DNA of 64,000 bases from Escherichia virus TH15. Under the pieces are notes generated by a model. That model ran no database searches. It saw only the letters and a program-made list of their open reading frames with translations, and was not told where the DNA came from. Shown here piece after piece: positions 5,645 to 56,229 of the stretch (position 1 is its first letter; the number at the start of each line of letters is the position of its first letter). Location of the stretch: the sequence record MT446392.1. One strand, 5' to 3'. Both the position numbers and the translations under genes were made by a program.

Positions 5645-5670
5645 AAGGGCCGCAAGGCCCTTATTCTTTT
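5645..5670. terminator. bidirectional intrinsic terminator (GGGCC-gcaa-GGCCC) after rnlB (+) and gp24 paralog (-)
   Basis: Hairpin with A6 upstream and T-rich run downstream. Confidence 0.7.
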
Positions 5671-6944: not shown

Positions 6945-8225
6945 TTACGCCTCATAAATGATTGGCGGAAGTTTAACACCGAGCAGATAAGACATATTGC
7001 TCTGGCCGGCCATTAAATCCATATTAGTTGCATCGATAATACGAGCTTCTTTGTCGTCTTTAGCAACGGTGTAAGGGTTAGCTGAAAGTGCATATCGAAC
7101 CATCAGGGAGATAGATGGCTGCAAGCTGTCTGGGTCCACAATGACCTTAAATGCACCTACGTGTTCTTCATCATCTAAGTCCAGGCCTTCGGTATAAGGA
7201 GCATAGAAGATTGAGCCTACGACTTCGTTTCCGCCATAATTTTCTTTAACGCCAACGGTTACATAATCTAATGGACTGTTAACATCACAGAATACAGGAA
7301 GACCATTAATCAAATAACCATACGCGGTTTCCGGGAGCCATTGTTCATCTTCAGGTTTATGTTTCAACCAACCGGAACCGGCGAGCATCGCGGCCACACG
7401 ACTTGAGGCAACAACGAATGTACCAGAGTAAGATGTAGTTTTCTGAATTTCAGAGTTCATTTCGCACACCAGTTCGTACAGTTTACGTGCGCCTTCTGGA
7501 GCTGAATCATATGTCAAATCGATGAAACCTTTATCAGAAACGCCAGTGACTTTATAACGCTTGGAAACGGTAATCAGAGACTGAAGAACATCTTTGTTAA
7601 TTTCATCTGCCATAGTAGTTGCAAGCAGGTCTTCCAGGAAAGCAGGAGCATTAAAACCGTTTGCTTCCATATCCTGTGCAAGTTCAACAGTCAGTGCAGT
7701 TTTCAATTTACGGGATTTAACAGGAGCATTCCATTTATTAACCTGGAATACAGCGTTACTAATTTCAACATCACCAGCTTCAAATTTCTCGGTGTGTGCA
7801 GCATCAGGAACTAAACGAATAGTCGATGCAATAAGACCTTCTTGCAGAACATCAGATAATACTGTTTCTGTAGTCGTTGCAAATGGATTATCCACCAGAG
7901 CTTTGTAAACGATATTTTGATATTTTACATATTCGCCTTTAGCAACAGGTTGAGTAGCTGTAGCTAATTCTGGAATAGTTGTACGGTCTTTAGAACCGAC
8001 TTCACCACCATAAGTAGCACCAGTCTGGAAACTGAATTCATTATCAGGAGTAAGATATTTAACACCGTACAGCGCAGCAACAGGCTGGTTAGTACGTTGT
8101 TCAGCGATGATATCGCGGTAAATCAATTTAGTTGTAGCGCGGGTCAAAGCAACAAGATTCGGGCGGCCTAATGAGTTGCTGGATGTAGTAGTTGACTCGC
8201 GCAGCAGTTCGTTAATCTTTGCCAT
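6945..8225 (-). CDS. 24: gp24 head vertex protein
   Basis: 426 aa; N-terminus MAKINELLRESTTT...GRPNLVALTRATTKLIY matches T4 gp24 as remembered. Confidence 0.9.
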   Translation of the reverse strand: MAKINELLRESTTTSSNSLGRPNLVALTRATTKLIYRDIIAEQRTNQPVAALYGVKYLTPDNEFSFQTGATYGGEVGSKDRTTIPELATATQPVAKGEYVKYQNIVYKALVDNPFATTTETVLSDVLQEGLIASTIRLVPDAAHTEKFEAGDVEISNAVFQVNKWNAPVKSRKLKTALTVELAQDMEANGFNAPAFLEDLLATTMADEINKDVLQSLITVSKRYKVTGVSDKGFIDLTYDSAPEGARKLYELVCEMNSEIQKTTSYSGTFVVASSRVAAMLAGSGWLKHKPEDEQWLPETAYGYLINGLPVFCDVNSPLDYVTVGVKENYGGNEVVGSIFYAPYTEGLDLDDEEHVGAFKVIVDPDSLQPSISLMVRYALSANPYTVAKDDKEARIIDATNMDLMAGQSNMSYLLGVKLPPIIYEA

Positions 8226-8318: not shown

Positions 8319-8978
8319 ATGCATTATTTAATTTACAAAATAACTAACTTGATAAATCATAAAATTTATATTGGGGCGCACGCCACAGAAAACGTGTATG
8401 ACTCCTATATGGGGTCGGGAGTCAACATTGTCAAATCCATCAAAAAACATGGTATTAAGAACTTTAAAAAAGAAATTTTGTTTGTTTTTGATACTTCATA
8501 TGAAATGTATGAGAAAGAAGCTGAACTTGTTAATGAACAATTTGTGCTTAGAGCTGATACATACAATGCAGCTATTGGCGGCAAGGGAAATCCAATTATT
8601 GTTAAACTACAAGACCCTTCATACAGAAAAATGATTTCAGAAAAGACAAAAGCAGGTATGACCGTAGAAGTAAAGCGGAAAATATCAATAGCAAAAACAG
8701 GAGTCAAACAGTCACAAGAGCTTATTGATAAACGTACGGCGGGTGTCAAAAAATATTTAGAAACACACCAGCATCACAACAAAAATAAACCAATAAGCGA
8801 TAGCCACCGCAAAGCAATTTCAGAAAAATTAAAAGGGATTAAAAAACTTATTAAGATTTCAATCAAAGGTAAGACTTTTGATAACCCAGATTTTGCTGCT
8901 GAACATTTTGGCGTTTCTCCAAAAACAATACGCAATTGGATAAATTCAGATAAACACCCAGACTGCTTCAAACAATAA
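8319..8978 (+). CDS. GIY-YIG homing endonuclease (Seg-like) with NUMOD3-type DNA-binding repeats
   Basis: 219 aa; N-terminal [19 protein letters not shown]...GSG GIY-YIG-type motif; inserted between genes 23 and 24 on opposite strand. Confidence 0.8.
8319..8978 (+). mobile_element. free-standing homing endonuclease gene insertion between 24 and 23
   Basis: Same as CDS; opposite strand to flanking late genes. Confidence 0.6.
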
Positions 8979-9016: not shown

Positions 9017-10576
9017 TTAAATTCCCTTAACATATACACGTCTAAAGTAACCGTTCAAGCCGAGGCTGTTAACGATGTCCGGCATACCGTTTTGAATACG
9101 CTTGGTCGGAGCCTGAGCTGCCGGGTCAGCGAACGGGTTAATACCGATACCGTAACGGGTTTTGAAGCCCATAACCGGCTGGAAGTTTTTCGGGTCAGAG
9201 CCACGCAGCGGTGTCAGTGCAACATATGGTGCGTAGTAGATACCAGCATCCATTTCGTTAGCACCTTTGTAACCGATGGTGAAGTAATCTGCGCGAGCAT
9301 ACTGGTCGATATAGACACGGTATTTGCCACCCAGAACACCAGCGAACACAGCTTTAGTGGTGTCAACGTTGAAACCTTTACCCAGACCCTGAGCAGCATA
9401 AGATACGGAGGTATCAACTGCAGCCAGTACGTTAACTACGTTACGGGAAGCGATGATGAAGTTACCTGCACCACGACCGGTCTGACGAGCGATTTCAGCA
9501 GCTTCTTTGTCAATCTGGAACAGTAAAGCTTTGAAGCTTTCACCAGCCCAACGAGCGCCACGGATATCAATCGGGTCCTGGAAGTCAAACACACCAGCTT
9601 TAGCGCCAACGGTGTTGGTCATACCAGATTTACCAACCTGTGCGGAGTAGTTAATCCAATCGATAACTTCGCGGTTGATTTCCAGCATAATTTCAGTAGC
9701 CAGAATACCACTCAATTCAGCATCAGCGTCCATACCGTGAACAGCGCGCAGGTCCTGTGCCAGTTCGATAGAGTAGCTTGCTTTCAGCTGACGGGATTTA
9801 GCTTCGATAACTTGTTTATCGATGCGGAAGCCCATTTCGTTCCACGGGTTATCCTGAGAACCGTTGAAACCTTCCTGCAGTTCGGCGATAGAGGTAGCCA
9901 TACCTTCAGCGATTTCTGCCAGTTTACCAGCTTCGAGCAGTTTGGTAACTTCAGCGTCAAGTTTAGCAGCATCAGTAGCGGCGGCATCAACGGTTACAGC
10001 TTCAACAGCCTGGTAGTGTGCGGAACCGGTTGCTTCGAAGAAGTGAGAATAAATTTTACCAACGGTAAGAACTTTGCTTGCAGCCAGAGCTTCGAAAGCT
10101 TCAGCAGCGCCCTGACCGGAGAACATAGCGTTCGGAGCATACATCGGGTGGAAAGCTTCTTTAGCACCAGCAGCTACAGGGTCTTTACCGTAAACTGCAC
10201 GCAGGGCAAATACCTGGCCAGTCGGGTTGTTCAGAGGCTGGACGCCACAAATATCAAACGCAATCAGATGCGGGATAGCACGACGAACCATACCCATAAC
10301 TGCCGGCCCAATCTGAGTTACTGCACCAGAGGTCTGGCCAGCAGCGATATTGGTAGCATCATAACCATGGTCACCACCGATTTCAGCTTCGGTCAGGAAA
10401 GAACCAAATGCTTCGGAGATTTTTTCGTCACGGTATTCTGGAGCGGTCAGGATATCTTGTTCCTGGTTTTCAAAGATTTTAGCGATGATAGCTTGTTTAG
10501 AAGCACCAACGATTTCAGGAAGAGCTTCATTTTCCAGCAGAGCGGACCATTTTTGTACTAATGCATTCTTTTTCAT
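9017..10576 (-). CDS. 23: gp23 major capsid protein
   Basis: 519 aa; long blocks matching T4 gp23 as remembered (AIIAKIFENQE, GPAVMGMVRRAIP, NPWNEMGFRIDKQVIEAKSRQLKA). Confidence 0.97.
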   Translation of the reverse strand: MKKNALVQKWSALLENEALPEIVGASKQAIIAKIFENQEQDILTAPEYRDEKISEAFGSFLTEAEIGGDHGYDATNIAAGQTSGAVTQIGPAVMGMVRRAIPHLIAFDICGVQPLNNPTGQVFALRAVYGKDPVAAGAKEAFHPMYAPNAMFSGQGAAEAFEALAASKVLTVGKIYSHFFEATGSAHYQAVEAVTVDAAATDAAKLDAEVTKLLEAGKLAEIAEGMATSIAELQEGFNGSQDNPWNEMGFRIDKQVIEAKSRQLKASYSIELAQDLRAVHGMDADAELSGILATEIMLEINREVIDWINYSAQVGKSGMTNTVGAKAGVFDFQDPIDIRGARWAGESFKALLFQIDKEAAEIARQTGRGAGNFIIASRNVVNVLAAVDTSVSYAAQGLGKGFNVDTTKAVFAGVLGGKYRVYIDQYARADYFTIGYKGANEMDAGIYYAPYVALTPLRGSDPKNFQPVMGFKTRYGIGINPFADPAAQAPTKRIQNGMPDIVNSLGLNGYFRRVYVKGI

Positions 10577-10597
10577 GTGTTGTATAACCTTATTAAA

Positions 10598-11416
10598 TTA
10601 AGAAATTCGTGATGCTGCGAGAGCAGACAAGTCCGCGAAGGACAGGGTAGGCTTGGCGCCTTTTTCTTCAACTGCTTCTGAAATGTAATTCAGTGCCGCA
10701 GCATCGTCTACATTTTTATTTATAGCGGCTTCGGTGATTGGTTTTTCGGTGGGTTCTACCTGACCTTTAACCATTTCAACAATAGCGCCAATTTTGGTAC
10801 CGAATGCATCAGAGTAATCCATGCCTTCTACCAGAGAACCAACTTTTTCTTTCTGAGATTCAGTCAGGTCTTTGGTTGCTTCAGTCAACGCAACTTCACG
10901 TTGGACATAATTGATATAAGCATCACGCTTAGAAACTTCTTCGAACAGACTAGCGGTTTCTTCTTTCTGTTCAGCCAGTTCTTCCTGCATTTCTGCAACA
11001 ACATCAACAGATTCTTCTGGAACAACAACGTTGTGCTCAACGAACAGTTCTTTCATGCCGGTAAACATGGATTCGAACAGGTCAGCTTTAATGCCACGGT
11101 CGACAGCCAGTTTGTTTTCAGCAAGCCATTCTTTAGCAACGTGGTCCAGGAATTTAGCTGCAGATTCTTTCAGTTTTTTCTCTGCTTTTTCGTCGGATTC
11201 TTCTTTATTCTTTTCGACTTCTTCTTCAGCTTTTTCAGCGATGGCGTGAATGTGAGATTCTGCCAGTTTGATGGCGTGTTGCTTGACGGTAGCTTCGAAT
11301 ACAGTGCCGAAGGTAGCTTTCGCTTCCGGGGACAAATTAACTGATTCGAAAATACTATCAAGAGCAACGGAAGCATCGATATTCTGAGCTTCAGAAATGA
11401 GTTGTTCTTTAAGCAT
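10598..11416 (-). CDS. 22: gp22 prohead core scaffold protein
   Basis: 272 aa acidic coiled-coil protein between 21 and 23; T4 synteny. Confidence 0.88.
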   Translation of the reverse strand: MLKEQLISEAQNIDASVALDSIFESVNLSPEAKATFGTVFEATVKQHAIKLAESHIHAIAEKAEEEVEKNKEESDEKAEKKLKESAAKFLDHVAKEWLAENKLAVDRGIKADLFESMFTGMKELFVEHNVVVPEESVDVVAEMQEELAEQKEETASLFEEVSKRDAYINYVQREVALTEATKDLTESQKEKVGSLVEGMDYSDAFGTKIGAIVEMVKGQVEPTEKPITEAAINKNVDDAAALNYISEAVEEKGAKPTLSFADLSALAASRIS

Positions 11417-11445
11417 TTTGTAGTCCTGTTGTTAAGATATACATT

Positions 11446-11453
11446 TATTTATA
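11446..11453 (-). promoter_or_regulatory. T4-type late promoter TATAAATA upstream of gene 22
   Basis: 30 nt upstream of ATG at 11416. Confidence 0.65.
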
Positions 11454-12087
11454 ACGTCTTTAAAGCCTCTGCGAGAGCCATAAAGGCGTCATCGGCACTG
11501 GTATCGGCTTCCGCCGTTTGTGATTCTGTAATCTGCTTCGGTTTGACCCAAGCGTCCGGAGCACTCGGCCCCCATACTGCATCCACTCCAACCGTCAATT
11601 TAAAACCTTCGTTGACGATACTATAACCTTTGGCTGATTTAGTCAAGGAACCAAGTCCACGACTAGATACACCCGGAATCCAACCTGCTCTTATATTTGC
11701 GGCAAGTTTATCACCTGGGCCATGGTCGCCTTCAATAATTCGTGCACGTCCATATACATCATTTCCTTTCCACCACATTTCTTCAATAATAATTGCGGCT
11801 TGCATAGGGTCGACGTTCGCACGGGGTGGATGGTTTAATTCTCCAAGTGACTGCTTGGTTTCAACCTGTTCGGCGATATAATCCGCAACGGCTTTTTCCA
11901 AAATATGTTTAGGATAAAGTCGTTTATTACGGTTGACAACTTCAGCTTGTAGGAAAATCCCTTCAATATAAAGTCCAGGTTTTAAACCGCTGCCAGAACC
12001 ATCATGTGATTCCAGCATCGGTACACCATCTTTAATTTCGCCCGGTTGACCCCAGTGTTCGATTAGTAACTCTGGTTTCTGTTCCAT
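11449..12087 (-). CDS. 21: gp21 prohead core protease
   Basis: 212 aa; LLIE.WGQPGEI.DGVPMLESHDG...LGELNHPPRANVDPMQAAIIIE matches T4 gp21 as remembered. Confidence 0.95.
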   Translation of the reverse strand: MEQKPELLIEHWGQPGEIKDGVPMLESHDGSGSGLKPGLYIEGIFLQAEVVNRNKRLYPKHILEKAVADYIAEQVETKQSLGELNHPPRANVDPMQAAIIIEEMWWKGNDVYGRARIIEGDHGPGDKLAANIRAGWIPGVSSRGLGSLTKSAKGYSIVNEGFKLTVGVDAVWGPSAPDAWVKPKQITESQTAEADTSADDAFMALAEALKTL

Positions 12088-12515
12088 TAATTCAGTCCGA
12101 ATGCTTTACGCTTAGCTCGAGCTTTTTTGCGCTTGCGCTCTGCTCTGATTTGCGTTGATGGGTTTGCACGTTTGGTTTTAGTAGCTTTACGGGCAATTTG
12201 ACGACGTTTTGCTTTAGAAAGACCGGTTGTCTGGAAAGCGTTACGGCTACGAGTAGCACGGTCTTTTGTGCGGGTTAATTCACCGCGGGACGATACATGT
12301 TTAACGATAAATTCGTCAAGCTGAATATCTTCATTCAGTGCACCGATAACGATTGCTTTTTCAATCTCACCGTTGGCAAACATGTTTTCTACAATAATAT
12401 TTATATCGTCCGTTTCTAAGGCTTCGGATAATGAGTCAAATTGTCCCTGAGCTGCTTCTGAAATACTTTCGATATTTTCAAGAGTTAATTCGTAACCTTC
12501 AGGGAGAATAAGCAT
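12087..12515 (-). CDS. 68: gp68 prohead core protein
   Basis: 142 aa, basic C-terminus; position between 67 and 21 as in T4. Confidence 0.75.
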
Positions 12516-12778
12516 TATTCGTCGTCCTCATCGTCTTCATCATCGTCGTCGCCTTCATCGGCATCGTCAGAATCTTTTTTATCTTTCTTCTCGTCCTTGG
12601 TATCTTTATCGTCTTCATCATCTTCTTTAGGCTCTTCGCCTTCAATCATGATGGAACGTGCAATTTCAATCTTACGTTCTTGAATCAAACTACCGCATAC
12701 TGGGCCAATGTTTTCAGCAAAATATTTGCGAACGGCTACGAGGTCGTTTGATTTAATGGCTTCAAATAAATCATCCAT
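12515..12778 (-). CDS. 67: gp67 prohead core protein (acidic C-terminal tail)
   Basis: 87 aa with poly-D/E tail; position between 20 and 68 as in T4. Confidence 0.75.
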
Positions 12779-14352
12779 TAGAAATCCTCTTCTTCTTCTT
12801 CAGGGTTTTGGAAACGAGCCTCTTTGGACTCCAACTCAATTTGCTTAGCTTCTTGGTTGATTTCTTCATCAGACATTTGGAGGAAATCCTTCATTGCAGT
12901 TTGATGCGAAATATATTTACCGATAAACGGTTCAGCCATTGTTAGCATATTGATTCTGCGTTCCATGATTTCTGCGTCTTTCATTTCGGTGAAATAGCTA
13001 TCACGGTTGAACGTAACTTTAATATTATTTAGTTCCTTGTCCCACTCATCCTCTGTGATAACTTTCTTAAGGATAAGGTTTGTTTTCAATGGGTCAAGGA
13101 AAACTTCTTCAAATTTATTCTGGAGCTGACGAATCCACTTAGCAAAATTCAACTCATCACGAGTAATTGTTGCCCCGGCATCAAACATAACACCACTGTT
13201 TTGGTCGTTAGGGATACGAGATAATGGAATTCTCAAGGCTTGATATAGGTTGTTCTTAAACCAGCGAACATCGTCCATATCCGACATACCTTGCGCACCT
13301 GGCAATGTATCAACTTCGGTGACTGCTTTACCATCACGACGTTGTAACCAATAGTCTTCTGTCATAGACATGTTATGTTGTTGGTTTTTGATTTTACCTG
13401 TGGTTGCATCATATACGACACGGTTTTTCATCGTGTTCATAATATGTTGCATGTGTGCTGCTGCCTTACGAGACGGCATGTTTCCTGTGTCGATATAAAA
13501 TACACGACGGTCTGGAGCACGAGTAATACGGTAGATAACTAATGCATCTTCTAATAGTTTTAATTGGTTTGCAGGTTTGATTGCTCGTTGCAGGTATCCG
13601 ATGATATTCTTACCGCAACGATCAAGTAATCCGGAATGCGCATATACAATTGCCGCACGAGGAATTTTTATTTTTGTACCTGCTTCATATATACGACCAT
13701 CGGCACAATAACTTTCATGACCTGTATCGTATACAAAATATTCTCTGTAACCGTCAACAATTTTCGTACCATTTTCCATGCGTGTAACGATTTCACGGAT
13801 GAACTGGATTTGTCTTGGGTCAAGGCGACGAAGTTCTTGAACGCCTTCTTTAATTTTTGAAGGGTTGATAATTTTGTGGAAGAAAATTCGAGAATCCACA
13901 TACCAACGTTTAAAATGGTCAGAGCCTTTACGTTCGAAATTAAGGAGGTTATTCACTTCCAAAAATTCTTCAAGGATTCTATCTTTAATATTCTGACTAA
14001 ATTCAGTAGCATCAAGGTTAAGAGCTACAACATCTTTACCGTCTTCAAATACGATGGCATCAGACACAATCTCTTGAACCGCGTTATCAACTTCATAATT
14101 ATTTAGTAGGTTGCGGTATGTGTCAATTAATTCCCTGGTGTTTTTTACTTCCGGTTCGTTGCTCCCGAACATCTGTTGCATCAATGCATTATACGGGACG
14201 TTTTGTTCTTGTGACTCAATTTCGCGAGCCCCATCATCAAACTTCGGCCCGGTCATTGACTCTAAATTATTTTTTTCTTGTTGCTTATATTCTTGTTCAT
14301 CTTCTTTAGCCCAAGGCTTAAGAAAATTTAGTATTGTATTAAAACCTGCCAT
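12778..14352 (-). CDS. 20: gp20 portal vertex protein
   Basis: 524 aa, same length as T4 gp20; synteny. Confidence 0.93.
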
Positions 14353-39760: not shown

Positions 39761-40360
39761 ATGTCAGGTTTATATAATCAAACTAACACGACTAACTTTA
39801 TATTAGAGGTAAGCGATTCAAACCTCACACAGACTTTTAAACTCAACGTTCAAGACGTTACCCTCCCAGGAGTTCACATCCCTGTTACAGATGTCCCGGG
39901 TGGAACACAAGGCATAAATCGCTCCAGTCTTCCTGGTAGTACAATAGAATTCGACCCGCTGATTGTTAACTTTCTGTGTGACAAAGACCTAAGGGCATGG
40001 CTTGATATCTATAAATGGATGCTCTCGCTTAACAACTACATCACACACGAATCAAAGGCATGGCATCCAAAGGGTCGTCCCGAAGCGGTCACGCTTCATA
40101 TCTTAGATAACAACAAGGACAAAATTGTCATGTCAATCCATTACTATGGAGCATGGCCGTCCGACCTGTCAGAGATTCAGTATTCATATAAAGAAGATTC
40201 TGACCCTGCTATCAACGCAACAGCAACTTTTAACTTTAAGTCTTTTGCTGTGGAAATTGATGGTATAATAATAGAAGGTAGACCACAGATTGATAGTAAT
40301 GCAGCAATGCAACAGGAAATCAGGTCTAAGTCAATGCATCCATCTATGAGAAACGTATGA
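39761..40360 (+). CDS. 3: gp3 tail completion and sheath stabilizer protein (start set to first ATG with SD)
   Basis: ~199 aa; position between 2 and 1. Confidence 0.7.
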   Translation: MSGLYNQTNTTNFILEVSDSNLTQTFKLNVQDVTLPGVHIPVTDVPGGTQGINRSSLPGSTIEFDPLIVNFLCDKDLRAWLDIYKWMLSLNNYITHESKAWHPKGRPEAVTLHILDNNKDKIVMSIHYYGAWPSDLSEIQYSYKEDSDPAINATATFNFKSFAVEIDGIIIEGRPQIDSNAAMQQEIRSKSMHPSMRNV

Positions 40361-41033
40361 AATTAATTGCGATTGTGGGTAAAAAACGCAGTGGTAAAGA
40401 TACGACTGCTGATTATGTTATTAGTCAAAACGGAACAAAGTGGCAACTTGCTGGTCCAATTAAAGAAGCGCTTTATAAAGCGTGGGTTCGTCAAGACCTG
40501 CCACACAATTTGACCCTGGAAAATTTTGATGGACAAGGTTATGACCGTGAAAAAACATTGATAATGAACAACACCGAAGCTCATATTCTTCTGGTTGATG
40601 CTCTTGAATGGTTAAAACAACAATATAATCTTGACCTTCCGAATCCAGATATGGTTCGTAAAATCATTGAATTTCACACACTAAATAATGTTGAGCCCTG
40701 GACAGTTAGACGTTTCATGCAGACCCTTGGAACTGACATCGTTTGTACAGAGTTCGACAGCATGTTTTGGATTAAAACTTTTGCATGCGATTATCTTGAC
40801 AACCTCTATTCTGGATATAAATATTACGTTGTCCCAGATGTTCGCCAAAAGAACGAACTTGATTCGCTTCGGGCGATGGGTGCTACAATAATCTTTGTAG
40901 AGCGCGATGAAGCAAATCATTCTACTGATACACACATTACGGAAGCTGGACTTCCACCACTAGCTAGTGACATTGTTATTAAAAACGATGGCACACTCGA
41001 AGAACTTTTTGATAAAATTAATAAGGTAATATA

Positions 41034-41034
<1 letters not shown>
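40357..41034 (+). CDS. 1: gp1 deoxynucleoside monophosphate kinase
   Basis: 225 aa; P-loop GKKRSGKDTTADY like T4 gp1. Confidence 0.92.
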
Positions 41035-41723
<689 letters not shown>

Positions 41724-41725
<2 letters not shown>

Positions 41726-41762
41726 TGTACAAATGAGTGTAGGTGCAGTATTATGTTCCTAC
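41724..41762 (+). promoter_or_regulatory. early promoter (GTGTAC -35, TATTAT -10) with -10 inside inverted repeat GTGTAGG/CCTACAC
   Basis: Read directly upstream of first internal-protein-like gene. Confidence 0.5.
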
Positions 41763-41785
41763 ACCAACGAACAAACGGAGTTAAA

Positions 41786-42118
41786 ATGAACATCAAGACT
41801 TATAACGAGTTTTTAGTCGAATCCGCCATCAATGAGACCAAATCAATTGATGATAGTGAAGGCTCTCTGAAATTTGGTTTATCCAAAAATGCAGATGGTG
41901 TTTTCTTTCAGATTGGTAATGAACGTTTTCAAACGTCCAAATATTCCAAAGCTGCAGTTGAAGCTGTCCTGAAATCTGGTGGCAAGTGGAAAGGCAAAGA
42001 AGGTACTAAAGAAATTGGTATCGCTGTTGACGGCGGTATGGCTTATTTCAAAATTGGTGATGAACAATTCATTATGTCTGCTCGCGGACGTAAAGAACTT
42101 GCAAAACTTTATAAATAA
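41786..42118 (+). CDS. internal-protein-like capsid-targeted protein (N-terminal CTS-like MNIKTYNEFLVE)
   Basis: 110 aa from ATG 41786; N-terminus resembles T4 IP capsid targeting sequence MKTYQEFIAE. Confidence 0.65.
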   Translation: MNIKTYNEFLVESAINETKSIDDSEGSLKFGLSKNADGVFFQIGNERFQTSKYSKAAVEAVLKSGGKWKGKEGTKEIGIAVDGGMAYFKIGDEQFIMSARGRKELAKLYK

Positions 42119-42126
42119 GGTTTCTT

Positions 42127-42399
42127 ATGAAAACTTTCAATGAATTTTTCAACGAGTCCCAACTGAATGAAGAAGTAAAAATTAGTAAATCAGTCAAAGC
42201 TATGATTGACAATATCAATCACCTGTATAGCATTGACTTAACTGACCATATAACAATTGGCAACAAACGCAACTTTTTCGCGTTTGACATTTCAGAACTT
42301 GACCAGAACCAAATTAATAACATTGAGCGTTTTGCCAATGATAAGGGTCTCCGCCACGAGACAGCTGGTTATAAAAAATATGCAATTTATCTAAAATAG
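42127..42399 (+). CDS. internal-protein-like protein (CTS-like MKTFNEFFNE)
   Basis: 90 aa. Confidence 0.65.
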   Translation: MKTFNEFFNESQLNEEVKISKSVKAMIDNINHLYSIDLTDHITIGNKRNFFAFDISELDQNQINNIERFANDKGLRHETAGYKKYAIYLK

Positions 42400-42407
42400 G
42401 ATTTCAA

Positions 42408-42707
42408 ATGCAAACTTTTCATGAATTTTTGGTAGAAAACAATTACCTGGCGGAAGCAAAAACCTGGCCTCTGGGCCTTCAGAAGAAAAACACCTACAAA
42501 TGGGTTGACTTCAAAGGCAAAGGCGACGCTGAAGACTTTGACCAGCTGCGTAAAAATGGTTATACCTTCCTTGACTCTAACTATAATAAAATTACCTCAT
42601 TTGGTCAGAAATCCAGCATCGCATATATTGAAACTGGTAAAAACACCCCTAAGAACATCACTGACGACTTCGCAGCTTATGGCGTGATTCGCGGTTCAAA
42701 AATGTAA
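42408..42707 (+). CDS. internal-protein-like protein (CTS-like MQTFHEFLVE)
   Basis: 99 aa. Confidence 0.65.
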   Translation: MQTFHEFLVENNYLAEAKTWPLGLQKKNTYKWVDFKGKGDAEDFDQLRKNGYTFLDSNYNKITSFGQKSSIAYIETGKNTPKNITDDFAAYGVIRGSKM

Positions 42708-42742
42708 TGTACATGATGGGATAACTGCAGTATAATTATCCC
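42708..42742 (+). promoter_or_regulatory. early promoter with -10 TATAAT embedded in inverted repeat GGGATA/TATCCC (PeSL-like cassette)
   Basis: TATAAT at 42731-42736; conserved leader TATCCCATCAACTACTGGAG follows. Confidence 0.5.
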
Positions 42743-42762
42743 ATCAACTACTGGAGCTACTA

Positions 42763-43041
42763 ATGAAAACTTATCAAGAATTTATTAACGAATCAATTAG
42801 TCACCCGGATATGCTGGAAGACCTGAAAGGACATCTGATGGTTAAGGCCAAACCGGTTGATGGTGGCGCATTTGAGTTGTTTCTTGTTAAAGGCGAAAAC
42901 GGTCCTGATAACAAGAAAGTTTCAGCAATGATGTTGACTAAAGGTTACAAAGTCAGTTCTTCCTGGAATGCTCCATTCACTTACGCGGTAAGCCCTCGTG
43001 AACTGAAAAAAGTTAAAGCTGGACAATATACAAAAATTTAG
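42763..43041 (+). CDS. internal-protein-like protein (CTS MKTYQEFINE)
   Basis: 92 aa. Confidence 0.7.
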   Translation: MKTYQEFINESISHPDMLEDLKGHLMVKAKPVDGGAFELFLVKGENGPDNKKVSAMMLTKGYKVSSSWNAPFTYAVSPRELKKVKAGQYTKI

Positions 43042-43076
43042 TGTACGTGATGGGATAGTTGCAGTATAATTATCCC
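43041..43076 (+). promoter_or_regulatory. early promoter GTGTAC / TATAAT within GGGATA/TATCCC inverted repeat (PeSL-like)
   Basis: Near-identical to 42708-42742 cassette. Confidence 0.5.
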
Positions 43077-43096
43077 ATCAACTACTGGAGCTACTA

Positions 43097-43351
43097 ATGA
43101 AAACTTATCAAGAATTTATTAACGAAGCCGCAGATGCAAAAGTTGAGTTTGCTTACGTTGGTTCCCCGCGCGGCAGTTTTTCTAATGAAGAATTCCGTCG
43201 TTCACTGGACAATTTCATGCAGTTAAGTGCTGAAGTATCGCATGATGGCCGTTATGACATCGTTACTATTAGCGGTTCTGAAGACCTTATCAAAAAGTGG
43301 TACAAGCAGAAAGATGTTGAGATGCGTTACTATCGTATCCCTAAAAAATAA
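43097..43351 (+). CDS. internal-protein-like protein (CTS MKTYQEFINE)
   Basis: 84 aa. Confidence 0.7.
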   Translation: MKTYQEFINEAADAKVEFAYVGSPRGSFSNEEFRRSLDNFMQLSAEVSHDGRYDIVTISGSEDLIKKWYKQKDVEMRYYRIPKK

Positions 43352-43386
43352 GTGTACATTTGAATGGGATAGCGTATAATTATCCC
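43352..43386 (+). promoter_or_regulatory. early promoter GTGTAC / TATAAT within GGGATA/TATCCC inverted repeat (PeSL-like)
   Basis: TATAAT 43375-43380. Confidence 0.5.
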
Positions 43387-43408
43387 ATCAACTACTGAGG
43401 AGAATAAA

Positions 43409-43594
43409 ATGAAACGTTGCGAATTAATTAGAAATGTTACTGCCATTGTTGCTGTTACCGCTTTTGGTTTTAGCATGTTTGCTGGCTTTATGTTGAATAT
43501 GCTTTCAACTTCTGAGAATATAATCTCTTTAGTAGTGGCATTCTTAATTGGTTCAATCTCTTTTGTTATGGATAAAATCTCTAAAGGTGAGTAA
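43409..43594 (+). CDS. small membrane protein (two predicted hydrophobic helices)
   Basis: 61 aa; hydrophobic stretches. Confidence 0.5.
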   Translation: MKRCELIRNVTAIVAVTAFGFSMFAGFMLNMLSTSENIISLVVAFLIGSISFVMDKISKGE

Positions 43595-44533: not shown

Positions 44534-44607
44534 GGCCCTGTAGCTGGACGGTCAAGCGAGCGACTCATAATCGCTGGATGGTGGTTCGATTCCACCCAGG
44601 GCCACCA
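44534..44607 (+). tRNA. tRNA with anticodon CAT (Met, or Ile if lysidine-modified as in T4 tRNA-Ile), encoded CCA
   Basis: Manual fold: acceptor GGCCCTG/CAGGGCC, anticodon stem AGCGA/TCGCT, loop CTCATAA, T-arm GGTGG-TTCGATT-CCACC. Confidence 0.8.
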
Positions 44608-48818: not shown

Positions 48819-49158
48819 TCTTGCACTACATGTTTATCAATTGGCTGAATATGATATTGGTGCCAATTTATTATTAGGGATTGTTACCGCTATGCTCGGG
48901 GGCTTGGTTGGCCTGGTAATGACCACAGTTATGGCTGCAATCGAGGGAGTCATGCCTATTGAGATGGGCTTCTTTATGATAATTGCTCCGGCTGTTGTAG
49001 CCTATTTTATCCCGGTTGTGTATGATATCTGTCACACAAACACCTTGAATGCTCCCATCCGTAAGAGATACGCTTTGGCAATGGCTGAGTATAATAAGTT
49101 CCTGGACAAAACAAAACGTAATGAACTTGAAACCTTTATTAAGGAATGTAAATCATGA
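48805..49158 (+). CDS. small membrane protein ending FIKECKS
   Basis: 117 aa from ATG 48805, SD AAGGAGG. Confidence 0.5.
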   Translation: MERPSLALHVYQLAEYDIGANLLLGIVTAMLGGLVGLVMTTVMAAIEGVMPIEMGFFMIIAPAVVAYFIPVVYDICHTNTLNAPIRKRYALAMAEYNKFLDKTKRNELETFIKECKS

Positions 49159-49445
49159 ATAAAATTGAAATCGCTATCCCTAAGTATTATGATGAGAAAT
49201 CTGCAGAAAAAGCTATCTATTCTCTTCTAAATAAGACTTCTGAAATTGAAACACATTGTGAAGAAATCGCTGATGAATATGGCATTGAATTCAGCACCGG
49301 CGATTACGGCACAGGTCGTACATACCACCCAGTCGGTTATGAATGCTCTGAATGGTTTACCCATCATATTGAAGCCAATGGCGGTCGGGTTGAAAATGGT
49401 GTTGTTACCGTTGGTGCTTGGGTCTCCTCTTCTGAGATGTGTTAA
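49155..49445 (+). CDS. small acidic protein, member 1 of tandem W-x-SS-x-x-C family (ends WVSSSEMC)
   Basis: 96 aa. Confidence 0.55.
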   Translation: MNKIEIAIPKYYDEKSAEKAIYSLLNKTSEIETHCEEIADEYGIEFSTGDYGTGRTYHPVGYECSEWFTHHIEANGGRVENGVVTVGAWVSSSEMC

Positions 49446-49454
49446 GGAAATGGT

Positions 49455-49736
49455 ATGATGAACGATTACAGTAAAAATAAAGAACTGGCCAACGCAGTAA
49501 ACGAAATCCATAAAGCTATTCGGCGCGCCGAGGAAATTGCAGACAAATATGAGACTCATTTTAATATATACCCTGCTCGCGGTATGGGCGGTGACTATTA
49601 TTCTCCTGGCGCCTTGAAAGCTGACCTTGCTCATTGGGAAAACTACGGTGAAGCCCAATACGCCATTGTTAACCAACATGACTACACAACGGACCTTGAA
49701 AAAGGTGGTTGGGTTTCCTCTTCTTCTGAATGTTAA
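49455..49736 (+). CDS. small acidic protein, family member 2 (ends WVSSSSEC)
   Basis: 93 aa. Confidence 0.55.
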   Translation: MMNDYSKNKELANAVNEIHKAIRRAEEIADKYETHFNIYPARGMGGDYYSPGALKADLAHWENYGEAQYAIVNQHDYTTDLEKGGWVSSSSEC

Positions 49737-49744
49737 GGAATTAT

Positions 49745-49942
49745 ATGTCCCGTGAATTAGATTGTGCAATCCGTACTGCTGCGGCAGCTATTGAAAACGT
49801 TATCCAGATTTGCAAAGAAGAACGCGAAGAAGCTGATATCTATATTGACGGTCAGCGTAATCTGGAACAACATATTACGCTTTATAATGGTTGTATTACT
49901 ATTAGTGGTACCTCTTGGGTGTCCTCCTCTTACGAATGCTAA
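49745..49942 (+). CDS. small acidic protein, family member 3 (ends WVSSSYEC)
   Basis: 65 aa from ATG 49745 with SD TAAGGAA. Confidence 0.5.
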   Translation: MSRELDCAIRTAAAAIENVIQICKEEREEADIYIDGQRNLEQHITLYNGCITISGTSWVSSSYEC

Positions 49943-49950
49943 GGAAATAA

Positions 49951-50178
49951 ATGACTACTAAAACTGTTAAAGAAATTGAAGACCAAATCCGTGCACTAAT
50001 CTGTGAAGGTGAACAGCTGGCCGATAAAACTGGTGAATACTTTCATGTATATGCTGACAGTCTTCAACGATATATTCCTGCGGGCTGTCCAGAATATGAA
50101 GAATATGACTGGATTCGCGGTGATTATGGTATCCCAGAAGGTAAAGGTTTCTGGTACACCTCCTCTATGTCTTGCTAA
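49951..50178 (+). CDS. small acidic protein, family member 4 (ends WYTSSMSC)
   Basis: 75 aa. Confidence 0.55.
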   Translation: MTTKTVKEIEDQIRALICEGEQLADKTGEYFHVYADSLQRYIPAGCPEYEEYDWIRGDYGIPEGKGFWYTSSMSC

Positions 50179-50187
50179 GGAATAAAA

Positions 50188-50412
50188 ATGTCTGATATTA
50201 ATGAATTAGAAAAAGCAGCTCTTGAACTGGCTGCGCTGTATAAGAAAGTTAAAGATATGGCTTCTGCTCAAGATTTCGGTATTGAGCTCGATGATTATGA
50301 TGGCGAAGTTCGTCTTGAAGACTGGTTGAACAGCTCTTGTTATGGTGAAGAAGCTGGTCGAACCTTCGTTGCTCACCCGGATGGTAAAATCTGGTACCCG
50401 AGCAGCTGCTAA
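50188..50412 (+). CDS. small acidic protein, family member 5 (ends WYPSSC)
   Basis: 74 aa. Confidence 0.55.
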   Translation: MSDINELEKAALELAALYKKVKDMASAQDFGIELDDYDGEVRLEDWLNSSCYGEEAGRTFVAHPDGKIWYPSSC

Positions 50413-53739: not shown

Positions 53740-54495
53740 ATGAATTATCTAAAAATATATGAATCTTTAATAGTATCTGCTATTAAAAGACCTCTTACAC
53801 AAGGATACACCGAAAAACATCATATTTTACCGAAATCGATGGGTGGTAATGATTCTATTGATAATTTAGTTACCCTTACCGCCCGTGAACATTTTATTGC
53901 ACACTTATTATTGGCAAGAATTTTTAAGAATCGCGAAATGTGGTCCGCTGCATATATGATGGCTTCAACAAGTCTAACTAACTCGGATAGACATAGATGC
54001 TCGTCACATTTATATGAATTATTGCGTAAACAAGCGTCGGTATATAATTCAGGTGAAAATTCTCCAAATTGGGGAATAAAACGTTCTGAAGAAACACGAT
54101 TAAAAATGTCAATTTCAAAAATGGGTATCAGGAATCCAATGTACGGTATTCCACAATGTTTGGAACACTCTCATAAAATTAGCCTTGGTGTTACCGAAGC
54201 TTTTAAAAATCCAGAAATGAAAGAACGCCACCGTCAAAGTGTTTCTGGAGAGAATAATGGGTTTTATGGAAAAAAACATTCCGAAAAAAGTTTGGAAAAA
54301 CAGCGGAATACAAAACGGAAAGGATTTCCTTGGGACAATTATTTGGAATTGTACCCAATTTGGGTTTCATTAAATTGCCCCAAGCATCCAACATTCACAA
54401 ATGAACTTGTTAAATTGGGATACCCCAAAAAGAAGCTTGTTCGAATAGTGGAAGAGTTTAAAAATGAATATATTCGAAATGCTACGCATAGATGA
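53740..54495 (+). CDS. HNH homing endonuclease (Mob-like) with NUMOD3 repeats
   Basis: 251 aa; [34 protein letters not shown] motif; ENSPNWG / NPMYG / [11 protein letters not shown] repeats; overlaps e start by 32 nt. Confidence 0.8.
53740..54495 (+). mobile_element. free-standing HNH homing endonuclease gene inserted between nudE and e
   Basis: Same as CDS. Confidence 0.6.
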
Positions 54496-54952
54496 AGGTT
54501 GTAAATTAGATTTGTATAAAGATACCGAGGGGTACTATACCATTGGTATCGGGCAACTGATAACTAAGAACCCATCGAAAGATGTTGCTCGTGCCGAGCT
54601 CGACAAGCTCATGGGTCGCGTCTGTAATGGTCGCATAACCCAGCACGAAGCTGAAACATTGTTTAACCGTTCGGTCGAAAAAGCTAAAGCCGGAATATTG
54701 AGGCATCCTGTCTTAAAACCTGTTTATGATGTACTGGATGAAGTTCGTCGTTGTGCACTCATTAATATGGTATTCCAGATGGGTGTTGCCGGGGTTGCTG
54801 GTTTTCCTAAGGGACTGCGATTGCTCAAGGCCAAATCGTGGGAAGCTGCTGCTAAGGAACTGGCGGACTCAAGATGGTATAAAGTCCAGACTCCAAACCG
54901 GGCCAAACGAGTTATTGAAACTTTCCGTACTGGAACTTTTGACGCTTATTAG
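54464..54952 (+). CDS. e: endolysin (T4 lysozyme)
   Basis: 162 aa; [12 protein letters not shown]...[13 protein letters not shown]...[12 protein letters not shown]...NRAKRVI.TFRTGT.DAY matches T4 E. Confidence 0.97.
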
Positions 54953-55007: not shown

Positions 55008-55424
55008 ATGACTCGCATTAATTTAACCCTGGTATCTGAACTTGCTGACCAACACCTTATGGCTGAATACCGCGAGCTTCCTCGCGTGTTTGGTGCTGTT
55101 CGTAAGCATGTGCAAAATGGTAAAAAGGTGTCTGACTTTAAAATCCCATCATCTTTTCTTTTAGGAACTGGTCATGTCACCTTCTTTTATGATAAGCTTT
55201 TGTTCCTTAAAAACCGTCATCAAGAACTTATTGCTGAATGTTTAAAGCGAGGGTTTAATATAAAAGATATTTCTACCCAAGATTTAAATGATATTCCTGA
55301 TGAATGGAAGAATGATTATCAACCATCAATCTGGTCAATTGAAATCAGTCAATCCAGACTGAATGAGAAAATTTCTCAAAAGCCTACCTGGTACAAATAC
55401 TATGGGAAAGCTGTGTACGCTTAA
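55008..55424 (+). CDS. denV: DenV endonuclease V (pyrimidine dimer DNA glycosylase)
   Basis: 138 aa; [34 protein letters not shown] matches T4 DenV nearly throughout. Confidence 0.97.
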
Positions 55425-55472: not shown

Positions 55473-55736
55473 ATGAAAACTTATCAAGAATTTATTACTG
55501 AATCTGCCAAAGCTCCTGCTGGTTCCTTTAAAGTCCGTGCCTTCGCTGGTGATGCTGAAGACTTTGGCTCACTGAAGCGCAACGGTTATTCTTTCTTTGG
55601 TGGTGATGGTAAAGAAATTGTTACCTATGCAAAACGTCGCGAAATCGCATTCGTGGTTGCTGGTAAGAAAGTATCCCCAGAAGATATTGAAGTTGACTTT
55701 GAGACCTTTGGTATTGTTTCTGGCGGTAAAGCTTAA
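55473..55736 (+). CDS. internal-protein-like protein (CTS MKTYQEFITE)
   Basis: 87 aa from ATG 55473. Confidence 0.65.
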   Translation: MKTYQEFITESAKAPAGSFKVRAFAGDAEDFGSLKRNGYSFFGGDGKEIVTYAKRREIAFVVAGKKVSPEDIEVDFETFGIVSGGKA

Positions 55737-55738
55737 CT

Positions 55739-55767
55739 GTTTACTTTATGATGGGATAGTGTATAAT
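55739..55767 (+). promoter_or_regulatory. early promoter GTTTAC-17-TATAAT whose -10 box contains the ATG of the next IP-like ORF
   Basis: GTTTAC 55739-55744, TATAAT 55762-55767. Confidence 0.45.
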
Positions 55768-56065
55768 GTTAACTTATCAAGAATTTATCACAGAAGCCAA
55801 AGTTCCTAAAGCATTTCAAATTGGGGTTCAAGGCAATTTAGACCAACAATATGTTGATGCTATTGTAGCAAGCCTCGGTAAACAAGGGGTGCAAGTGGAT
55901 TTGGTTGATTTTACCAAAGGCAATACTTTTAATATTGTTACATCTAAAGGTTCTTTAGCTAAAGTTAAAAAGGCCTTTGGCGTAGCACAAGCATACGAAA
56001 TCGACCATTCTGAATTCGAAAATAAAGGTCGCCAGAACACAATTAAAGGCTCTGGTTCTTTTTAA
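55766..56065 (+). CDS. internal-protein-like protein (degenerate CTS MLTYQEFITE); expression context unusual
   Basis: 99 aa; only possible ATG lies inside promoter -10. Confidence 0.45.
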   Translation: MLTYQEFITEAKVPKAFQIGVQGNLDQQYVDAIVASLGKQGVQVDLVDFTKGNTFNIVTSKGSLAKVKKAFGVAQAYEIDHSEFENKGRQNTIKGSGSF

Positions 56066-56229
56066 TAAAGGCAAACCGACCCTCTCCTCATGAACGTCGT
56101 GTCCTCTGAGTGATGGACCTTTCCCTACCTGTAATAAGGTCGAGCCCGAGTGCGGTAAGGGGTTTACATTCGGATACATGGATGAATTAATGTGCCAAGG
56201 AATGGCCCCAAAACCTTAAGAGAAACAAT

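Follow-up and report, generated by a model that had tools for sequence, protein, structure and literature searches.

Two internal-protein loci of a Gaprivervirus and the putative injected cargo of their capsid-targeted genes

Introduction

What are the five small genes that lie in tandem behind gene 57B of this phage and begin so much alike, and what could their products do? T4-type internal proteins (Mullaney & Black 1996, as cited in PMC3012670 and PMC9026906) are the closest known system for comparison, and polymorphic multi-gene internal-protein (IP) loci whose members share only a capsid-targeting sequence (CTS) were described long ago (Repoila 1994, as cited in the same two papers). Injected anti-restriction cargo is likewise an already published hypothesis (PMC3012670; Silas et al. 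2025, PMC12373910). In T4, each of Ip1, Ip2 and Ip3 inhibits a GmrSD enzyme of its own, and the genes of both Ip loci have been proposed as injected inhibitors of type IV restriction (Silas et al. 2025, PMC12373910); for GmrSD inhibition by a T4 internal protein, Bair et al. 2007 is the work cited.

The window (the whole 64-kb stretch of DNA that was analysed, to which all positions refer) comes from a Gaprivervirus of the VR7/SP18-like type. The five-gene array is the known variable internal-protein locus of T4-like phages, with a gene set already present in published genomes. In our preferred reading, to which we assign a probability of roughly 0.8, it is the first of the two canonical IP loci of Gaprivervirus and consists of five independent cassettes encoding injected anti-defence cargo.

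Gene order of the two loci

Locus 1 (O1 to O5) is followed by homologues of trna.4 and trna.3, one more ORF, and tRNA-Met/Arg genes at 44534 and 44742, whereas locus 2 (O6 and O7) lies 3' of denV (Table 1). The gene orders 57B - O1 to O5 - trna.4 and denV - O6, O7 - vs.8 correspond to both conserved T4-type IP loci, syntenic with the ipI and ipII/ipIII loci of T4. The initial annotation had placed five tandem ORFs of 84-110 aa with MKTYQEFINE-like starts between 57B and the tRNAs and two further members after denV, and the gene order agrees with this throughout. Its left limit, position 41724, was rejected as the start of O1, as it falls within the 57B stop codon; the upstream ATG at 41753 was rejected as well, since the ATG at 41786 is preceded by GGAG 6 nt upstream. 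Note that the 57B homologue is named anti-CBASS Acb1 in the record of one relative. The spacer behind O7 (56066-56229; 165 nt, GC-richer) gave no match in Rfam, and its predicted folding is no better than that of its shuffles.

Table 1. Features of the two internal-protein loci and of the prohead gene region. A slash in the CTS column marks the cut expected from gp21.
Feature	Position	Strand	Length (aa)	CTS	Description
gp22	10598..11416	-			scaffolding core protein
gp21	11449..12087	-			prohead protease, Peptidase_S77; enzyme expected to remove the CTS
gp68	12087-12515				adjoins gp22/gp21 region
gp67	12515-12778				adjoins gp22/gp21 region
57B homologue	41270..41725	+			left boundary of IP locus 1
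Promoter-like TGTACA-N17-TATTAT	41726..41768	+			upstream of O1; hairpin GTGTAGG/CCTACAC around -10
O1	41786-42118	+	110	MNIKTYNEFLVE/S	VR7 gp156 family, phrog_3966 'unknown function'
O2	42127-42399	+	90	MKTFNEFFNE/S	Ip9 homologue, phrog_7673
O3	42408-42707	+	99	MQTFHEFLVE/N	VR7 gp154 homologue ('internal head protein'), phrog_2667
Intergenic repeat, copy 1	42708..42751	+			TGTACA-N17-TATAAT; hairpin 42714-42724/42736-42746
O4	42763-43041	+	92	MKTYQEFINE/S	VR7 gp153 homologue, phrog_15565 'unknown function'
Intergenic repeat, copy 2	43042..43085	+			hairpin 43048-43061/43067-43080, -22 kcal/mol, z -4.4
O5	43097-43351	+	84	MKTYQEFINE/A	divergent Ip6 allele, phrog_8111
Intergenic repeat, copy 3	43353..43395	+			upstream of trna.4 homologue
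trna.4 homologue	43409-43594				right boundary of the array
denV	55008-55424				upstream neighbour of IP locus 2
O6	55473-55736	+	87	MKTYQEFITE/S	VR7 gp127 homologue; IP locus 2
O7	55766-56065	+	99	MLTYQEFITE/A	Ip7; IP locus 2

Capsid-targeting sequences and the processing machinery

All seven ORFs open with a T4-type CTS. Translation of the 64 kb in six frames contains the pattern T[YF]xEF[ILFV]xE seven times, every time at the N-terminus of one of O1-O7, against a chance expectation of 0.007 (mean of 300 Markov shuffles; maximum 1), and a much looser pattern revealed no additional member within the window. T4 IPII and IPIII start with MKTYQEFIAE and T4 IPI with MKTFKEFTST...ITE/A. Experiments with IPIII have established that targeting needs an aromatic residue at position 4 and Phe at position 7, while processing depends on position 8 being hydrophobic and position 10 being Glu (PMC9026906). 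Position 4 is Tyr or Phe and position 7 is Phe in all seven proteins, if O1 is counted with an offset for its two extra N-terminal residues (MNI-KTY). The predicted gp21 sites are, from O1 to O7, LVE, FNE, LVE, INE, INE, ITE and ITE, with the cut expected after Glu; O2 has Phe rather than Ile or Leu at position 8. Furthermore, O2 and O3 contain a second possible L-x-E site at residues 13-16 (LNE/E in O2, LAE/A in O3), which in O3 stands just before the conserved body KTWPLGL and is conserved across the O3 family.

The same window encodes gp20, gp21, gp22, gp67 and gp68 (Pfam matches to Peptidase_S77, T4_CASP, GP67, Portal_T4 and Gp23 at 9017-14352, minus strand), and it is to the gp22/gp67/gp68 core that the CTS would bind. 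The proposal of the initial annotation that these N-termini are T4-type capsid-targeting signals cleaved by gp21 is well supported at the level of sequence, by the key residues kept in all seven proteins, the canonical position of both loci, the presence of the gp21, gp22, gp67 and gp68 genes and the internal-protein names given to homologues. Virion proteomics of O1-O7 or of VR7-like phages was not found in the accessible literature.

The CTS codons of O4, O5, O6 and O7 are near-identical in DNA and part of a repeat, whereas those of O1-O3 have diverged in DNA with the key residues kept. Homologues of O1 in Kanagawavirus, Winklervirus and Moonvirus retain a canonical MKTY[DK]EFL[TA]E/S and occupy either IP locus despite their diverged DNA, and the O1 family as a whole retains the CTS across at least five Tevenvirinae genera. 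Since the tag was kept while the DNA diverged, selection on the tag is indicated.

Protein bodies

With the CTS removed, no pair among O1-O5 reached E<0.1. The claim that the bodies are unrelated to each other thus holds within locus 1; it fails across the loci, as O3 has a paralogue in O6 (61 aa aligned at 38% identity, E 8e-16; HMM 1e-16). O5, O7 and Ip6, which co-match phrog_2667, were considered as distant relatives of O3/O6 and rejected: no signal was left once the CTS was removed, so these cross-matches are driven by the CTS. Five of the seven proteins (O2, O3, O5, O6 and O7) match PHROG families of 'internal head/virion protein', and homologues are named Ip9, Ip6, Ip7 or 'internal head protein' in GenBank. 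T4 IPI, IPII and IPIII belong to other families (phrog_4363, 7857 and 5341, respectively), and neither BLAST and HMM comparisons of the CTS-stripped bodies nor PHROGs gave any homology of O1-O7 to them. None of the bodies has a homologue with demonstrated anti-restriction activity. In Pfam, none of the seven proteins rose above sub-threshold noise, and a PDB sequence search with O1-O5 gave nothing meaningful.

O4 is an ORFan confined to Gaprivervirus, represented by a single 90% cluster in an index of 5.8 billion proteins; the three weak matches from an exhaustive HMMER search, repeat-rich giants with Ig/MBG domains, were treated as spurious, and its single-sequence AF2 model (pLDDT 48) was unusable. 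For O1, which has an internal duplication, a Whirly/PUR-like fold of two beta-beta-beta-beta-alpha repeats is predicted with moderate confidence (pLDDT 75; 54-61 for the other four models), at only 8-13% sequence identity to members of the Whirly, PUR-alpha and MRP1-MRP2 fold. Most solved members of this fold bind nucleic acid, whereas SsgA and ErpC share the fold and do not. The predicted mature proteins are small (about 8-11 kDa) and in five of seven cases have a pI >8.2; mature O2 and O6 lie close to neutrality (pI 6.8 and 8.0), whereas classical IPs are basic.

Relatives and cassette polymorphism

All five locus-1 genes are present in UPEC01 (95-100% aa identity), and O4 and O5, the least common of the five, also in TH41 and TH44. 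The type phage VR7 carries four of the five. Its IP arrays consist of gp156, Ip9, gp154, gp153 and Ip6 in one locus and of Ip10, gp127 and Ip7 in the other; Ip10 is missing from locus 2 of the window. VR7 gp156 differs from O1 in one CTS residue, gp153 is identical to O4, O2 and O3 pair with Ip9 and gp154 on the grounds of gene order and length, gp127 shares 92% identity with O6, and the body of O7 is that of VR7 Ip7. O5, in contrast, is a divergent Ip6 allele (37% identity to VR7 Ip6) found also in RZ, UPEC01 and P8. The description of the locus as expanded is accurate relative to T4, which has one gene where this phage has five, but not within the genus, where five-gene IP arrays are normal.

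Gene content differs among VR7, VR25, VR26, RZ, VR20 and UPEC01. In VR25, one cassette is absent: a VR25-like array corresponds to the removal of one unit of a 96-nt repeat (the gp153 cassette), with the junction inside the conserved block described below.

The intergenic block

Most cassettes are preceded by a block of ~90 nt, which combines an early-promoter-like TGTACR-N16/17-TATAAT and hairpin with the SD and the CTS codons. It is found before O4, O5 and the trna.4 homologue as well as before their counterparts in relatives; its intergenic part exists in three near-identical copies and two variants, with hairpins of -12 to -22 kcal/mol. The intergenic repeat, the SD and the CTS codons make up a 96-nt direct repeat (42697-42792 and 43031-43126), the copies of which are 95% identical and 334 nt apart. 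Homologous recombination within this block would account for the gain, loss and exchange of cassettes, and the conserved promoter/hairpin/CTS joint is thereby documented as a proposed site of cassette exchange.

The predicted promoters before the cassettes are sigma-70-like. The start codon of O7 overlaps a -10 box. The consensus late promoter TATAAATA has just two matches, one inside gene 1 (40816) and one at 42110, where it overlaps the O1 stop and is too near O2 to include the O2 SD; none lies directly upstream of most cassettes, and none was found near locus 2.

The arrangement resembles the PeSLs (promoter-early stem-loops) that T4-type phages carry as mobile regulatory cassettes (Arbiol et al. 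2010; Comeau et al. 2014). In both cases a sigma-70-like promoter, here a predicted one, and a stem-loop are repeated between genes, variable ORFs of a hyperplastic region lie beside the module, and indels between relatives map there. However, the hairpin encloses the -10 box here and stands beside the promoter in PeSLs, the -35 box is TGTACR here, and the conserved block runs into the coding CTS.

Proposed function and alternatives

By analogy with T4 IPIII, the first 10-16 residues would act as the CTS and tether each protein to the gp22/gp67/gp68 core during prohead assembly. gp21 would then cut after the Glu of (I/L/F)-x-E and free the mature body inside the head, where it would stay among the packaged DNA until it is ejected with it into the cell. 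A body that enters with the DNA could therefore act before phage gene expression. The most likely task of such cargo would be to neutralise host defences attacking the incoming DNA, with one specific inhibitor per defence variant; we propose that this is why the bodies are diverse and the gene sets of close relatives differ.

The presumed delivery (packaged, processed, injected) and the genomic hotspot are shared with the GmrSD inhibitors Ip1, Ip2 and Ip3 of T4, and the likeness to T4-type internal proteins extends to the N-terminal CTS with its gp21 site, both loci (57B-trna.4 and beside denV), small size, unrelated bodies, varying gene content and a T4-type prohead core. O1-O7 might accordingly be specific inhibitors of GmrSD-type, glucosyl-hmC-dependent type IV restriction enzymes, each of the three T4 proteins blocking one GmrSD subtype and the authors having extended this to both loci (PMC12373910); BrxU/GmrSD enzymes are, moreover, known from the literature to accept a wide range of modified cytosines. 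This narrower assignment is possible but doubtful. The bodies share no sequence homology with the T4 inhibitors, and ip4-10 of T4-like phages, including the ip6, ip7 and ip9 types homologous to genes here, gave no reproducible inhibition of 15 GmrSD groups (PMC12373910). Furthermore, the hmC pathway of T4 is lacking: there is no gp42 (hydroxymethylase) homologue in the complete genome of the Gaprivervirus TH44 (tblastn, phmmer), and in VR7 neither 42 nor beta-gt is annotated between uvsX and imm, nor alpha-gt between 47 and 55. The enzymes hit by known IPs act on glucosyl-hmC, which is thus probably absent from Gaprivervirus DNA, the base of which has, according to two papers, yet to be identified. 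The injected anti-restriction cargo put forward in the initial annotation matches the published hypothesis, but finds no counterpart in homology to IPI, IPII or IPIII, in the results with ip4-10 or in an hmC pathway of the genus.

A different view is that the proteins are packaged and serve the virion itself, through neutralisation of DNA charge, organisation of the condensate or help in head assembly. T4 IPs are basic and present in ~360 copies each, and in IPIII mutants head assembly proceeds about half as fast and the burst falls to ~40% (PMC9026906); the basic character of most mature forms here and the predicted Whirly/PUR-like fold of O1 point the same way. Such a role nevertheless leaves unexplained why the bodies are unrelated and why genes are present or absent between near-identical phages. 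In addition, T4 can do without its IP genes on laboratory hosts (PMC9026906), and a specific defence target is now known for each of the three T4 IPs (PMC12373910), so that we regard a purely structural function as unlikely. Less probable still is that some of the ORFs are unpackaged, with the CTS codons persisting only as a recombination joint and the products being early cytoplasmic proteins. The near-identical, repeat-embedded CTS DNA of O4-O7 would fit, as would the sigma-70-like promoters and their overlap with the O7 start; retention of the key residues in O1-O3 and of the O1 tag across five genera speaks against it. Injected anti-defence cargo thus remains the preferred reading.

The presence of dCTPase, alc, denA and denB genes in Gaprivervirus makes another non-canonical base likely, and these phages appear to replace cytosine without any gp42-like enzyme. 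With gp42 lacking, a glucosyl-hmC-dependent target should not be assumed for the IP repertoire of this genus. As a speculation to which we give little weight, the seven-member cargo may be tuned to defences that sense such a putative base, and O1, kept with its CTS across genera, may, judging from its model, bind the nucleic acid that enters the cell and not a host nuclease, a mode unlike that of IPI*.

Among phage counter-defences, only injected internal proteins are already in the cell when phage gene expression begins, which makes a catalogue of CTS-tagged cassettes a ready source of candidate inhibitors of DNA-sensing immunity. The field already uses IP loci in this way, and the practical value of this window is modest. 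O1 and O4, 'hypothetical' so far, are CTS-bearing IPs, which supports re-annotation of VR7 gp156/phrog_3966 and gp153/phrog_15565.

CTS-bearing ORFs of the two loci

Five tandem ORFs of 84-110 aa with N-termini resembling the capsid-targeting sequence (CTS) of T4 internal proteins (IPs), which is cleaved by gp21, had been described in the initial annotation between 57B and the tRNAs (O1-O5, locus 1), together with two more after denV (O6 and O7, locus 2). All seven could be confirmed. Each opens with a variant of MKTYQEFI-E, and the pattern T[YF]xEF[ILFV]xE has exactly seven matches when the window is translated in all six frames, each at the start of one of these ORFs (chance expectation in 300 first-order Markov shuffles: mean 0.007, maximum 1). 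The feature is real, and the reading of the locus as an IP array is correct. A deliberately loose CTS pattern revealed no additional member within the window. For O1, ATG 41786 (GGAG 6 nt upstream) is the best choice of start; the resulting length agrees with the VR25 RefSeq annotation. Downstream of O5, homologues of T4 trna.4 and trna.3 come first; a further ORF separates them from tRNA-Met and tRNA-Arg. The window itself codes for the prohead machinery expected for CTS handling.

Genes of the two IP loci, their neighbours and the prohead genes in the window
Feature	Position	Strand	Length	N-terminus or remark
gene 1	40357-41034			upstream of array
57A	41034-41270			upstream of array
57B homologue	41270-41725	+		directly 5' of array
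O1	41786-42118	+	110 aa	MNIKTYNEFLVE
O2	42127-42399	+	90 aa	MKTFNEFFNE
O3	42408-42707	+	99 aa	MQTFHEFLVE
O4	42763-43041	+	92 aa	MKTYQEFINE
O5	43097-43351	+	84 aa	MKTYQEFINE
denV	55008-55424			precedes locus 2
O6	55473-55736		87 aa	MKTYQEFITE
O7	55766-56065		99 aa	MLTYQEFITE
gp23	9017-10576	-
gp22	10598-11416	-		scaffold
gp21	11449-12087	-		Peptidase_S77
gp68				encoded in window
gp67				encoded in window
gp20				portal; encoded in window

T4 IPII and IPIII start with MKTYQEFIAE|A, and IPI with MKTFKEF...ITE|A. According to amber-suppression and truncation work on IPIII, the first 10 residues are enough for packaging, targeting depending on positions 4 and 7 and processing on positions 8 and 10 (reviewed in PMC9026906). 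The determinants are kept in 7 of the 7 ORFs: position 4 is aromatic, position 7 is Phe, position 8 is hydrophobic and position 10 is Glu. In O2 and O3 another site, L-x-E, lies a few residues past the first, which recalls the 19-residue propeptide of T4 IPI; in all homologues of O3 this site directly precedes the conserved body KTWPLGL. The O1 family (11 clusters in an index of 5.8 billion proteins) has an invariant K-T-Y-x-x-F...E. In Edwardsiella phage PEi26 and Serratia phage CHI14 the gene of this family is immediately 3' of 57B, in Citrobacter phage Merlin it is between e and denV, and all three products start with MKTY[DK]EFL[TA]E|S. That the same body has kept its tag in different genera and in both loci argues for selection on the CTS of this family rather than accident.

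Bodies of the proteins

When the bodies were compared all-vs-all by BLAST without the CTS, and searched with HMMs built from O3-family homologues, O3 and O6 were the only related pair (38% identity over 61 aa, E 8e-16; HMM 1e-16). The earlier statement that the bodies are unrelated therefore holds within O1-O5 but not across the loci. A PHROG link of O7 to O3/O6 and a weak match of O5 to the same PHROG disappeared after CTS removal. Pfam and PDB sequence searches with the ORFs were empty, and no homologues of O4 were found beyond Gaprivervirus.

The best AF2 model of O1 (11-sequence alignment; pLDDT 75, pTM 0.62; the other four models 54-61) consists of two beta-beta-beta-beta-alpha repeats, which fits a visible duplication in the sequence. 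The values tabulated for this model were 8.9/8.7 for MRP2/MRP1, 7.5 for SsgA, 7.3 for Pur-alpha, 7.0 for StWhy2 and 6.8 for PBF-2. A Foldseek search of viral models returned mainly O1's own family. With moderate confidence, the predicted fold is Whirly/PUR-like and may serve as a lead; this fold is usually a nucleic-acid-binding module.

Gene content in relatives

The region is 92-96% identical (nt), with mosaic coverage, to the Gaprivervirus genomes VR7, VR20, VR25, VR26, SP18, RZ, UPEC01 and TH41/44. Locus 1 of VR7 is annotated as gp156 (hypothetical), Ip9, gp154 (internal head protein), gp153 (hypothetical) and Ip6. O1-O4 are the counterparts of the first four, O2 and O3 being matched by synteny and length; O1 differs from gp156 in a single CTS residue, and O4 is identical to gp153. 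O5 is a divergent Ip6 allele (37% identity to VR7 Ip6, E 9e-9; phrog_8111), found at 95-97% identity in RZ, P8, UPEC01 and TH41/44. In locus 2 (Ip10, gp127 and Ip7 in VR7), O6 corresponds to gp127 (92% identical) and O7 to Ip7 (body identical), whereas Ip10 is absent from the window. UPEC01 has all five locus-1 genes, and TH41 and TH44 each have both O4 and O5. Every gene of both loci is thus already present in public genomes, and the array is known, as a type of locus and also as this particular gene set; it is "expanded", as first described, relative to the single ipI of T4, but not relative to relatives such as UPEC01. The additions made here are modest: the recognition of gp156 and gp153 as CTS-bearing IPs, the O3/O6 paralogy, the anatomy of the cassette joints and a caveat concerning the DNA base of the genus.

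Relatives also contain CTS-like ORFs not found in the window: a 127-aa ORF (MLTYAEFLN...) 3' of the tRNAs (UPEC01 segment 5991-6374, VR20 segment 5072-5455), ORFs of 89 aa (MKTYQEFLAES...) and 65 aa (MLTYKEFMKE...) in TH44 locus 2, and a 55-aa ORF (MKTFKDFINED...) at TH44 95809, remote from both loci. The TH44 positions for such ORFs are 46151, 55995, 57108 and 95809.

Cassette joints

A block of ~90 nt is located 5' of O4, O5 and the trna.4 homologue. It comprises, in this order, the final codons of the gene before it, GTGTAC(A/G)-16-17 nt-TATAAT, CAACTACTGGAG (SD) and the CTS codons; a hairpin of 8-14 bp (GATGGGATA...TATCCCATC) encloses the -10 element. At the O3/O4 and O4/O5 junctions stand the two copies of a 96-nt direct repeat (95% identical, 334 nt apart). 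O1 is preceded by a block variant with a different stem and O7 by a truncated copy, and in aligned junctions of the window, VR7, VR25 and RZ the same block stands at nearly every cassette boundary. The block resembles the PeSL modules of hyperplastic regions in T4-type genomes but differs from them in hairpin position and in its reach into coding sequence. VR25 is without the gp153 cassette, which corresponds to one 334-nt repeat unit, and its gp154/Ip6 junction passes directly through this block. The third array position is occupied by gp154 or Ip5, the fifth by Ip6 or the O5 allele, and RZ has an additional 73-aa IP. Such variation gives the classic picture of cassette exchange known from the T-even IP locus.

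A near-consensus promoter of the T4 early type (GTTTAC-N17-TATAAT, 55741-55768) lies over the O7 start codon (tataATG), so its transcripts would be without the O7 start. The N-terminus is MLTY in the window and VR7, versus MKTY in the TH44 homologue, and the 5' end of O7 looks like a deletion joining an intergenic element to CTS codon 2-3. The T4 late-promoter consensus TATAAATA occurs at 42110-42117, where it covers the final codons of O1 including its stop (TAT AAA TAA); 9 nt 5' of the O2 start codon, it is too near to include the O2 SD in a transcript and may be coincidental.

Function and the DNA base

T4 IPs are present in ~360 copies per head, processed by gp21 and ejected along with the DNA (PMC3012670, PMC9026906). 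IPI* inhibits GmrS/GmrD, an enzyme of strain CT596 (PMC3012670), and Ip2 and Ip3 each block another GmrSD subtype; all genes of both Ip loci were proposed to target GmrSD variants, and ip4-10 of T4-like phages gave no reproducible inhibition with 15 GmrSD groups (Silas et al. 2025, PMC12373910). Injected anti-restriction cargo, as suggested in the initial annotation, is thus a published working hypothesis; for O1-O7 we infer such a role only by analogy.

The bodies have no homology to T4 IPI, IPII or IPIII, and none of O1-O7 falls into the corresponding PHROG families (4363, 7857 and 5341). The narrow (GmrSD) form of the hypothesis is weakened by this lack of homology to the three proven inhibitors, as well as by the lack of a detectable dCMP hydroxymethylase in the genus. 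In VR7, gene 42 and beta-gt are not annotated between uvsX and imm, nor alpha-gt between 47 and 55, and neither tblastn nor phmmer finds a gp42 homologue in the complete genome of TH44. Gaprivervirus genomes keep dCTPase (56), alc, denA and denB. Two comparative papers reached the same conclusions on gp42 and on these four genes, whose retention makes a non-canonical DNA base likely in Gaprivervirus (PMC8056088, PMC12115623). The target of these cargo proteins need not be a glucosyl-hmC-dependent enzyme.

Other loci in the window

The 57B homologue is annotated as "anti-CBASS protein Acb1" in phage EAWsc9; if true, a second counter-defence gene adjoins the array. The 165-nt non-coding spacer 3' of O7 (56066-56229; GC ~47%, above its surroundings) matched nothing in Rfam, and its stability does not exceed that of shuffled sequence. 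At 5661-8225 and 596-2620 there are two adjacent gp24/major-head-protein-like ORFs (minus strand, 427 and 426 aa) and two Hoc-like ORFs, one on each strand; between genes 24 and 23 lies a homing-endonuclease-like ORF (8319-8978, +). An ORF of 251 aa (53740-54495) contains an HNH-like motif; it is located directly 5' of the lysozyme gene e (54464-54952), which it slightly overlaps, and probably represents an inserted homing endonuclease. Finally, five tandem small + strand ORFs at 49155-50412 (96, 93, 70, 75 and 74 aa) share the C-terminal motif W-[VY]-[STP]-S-S-x(0-2)-C (WVSSSEMC, WVSSSSEC, WVSSSYEC, WYTSSMSC, WYPSSC) and are a putative tandem paralogue family.
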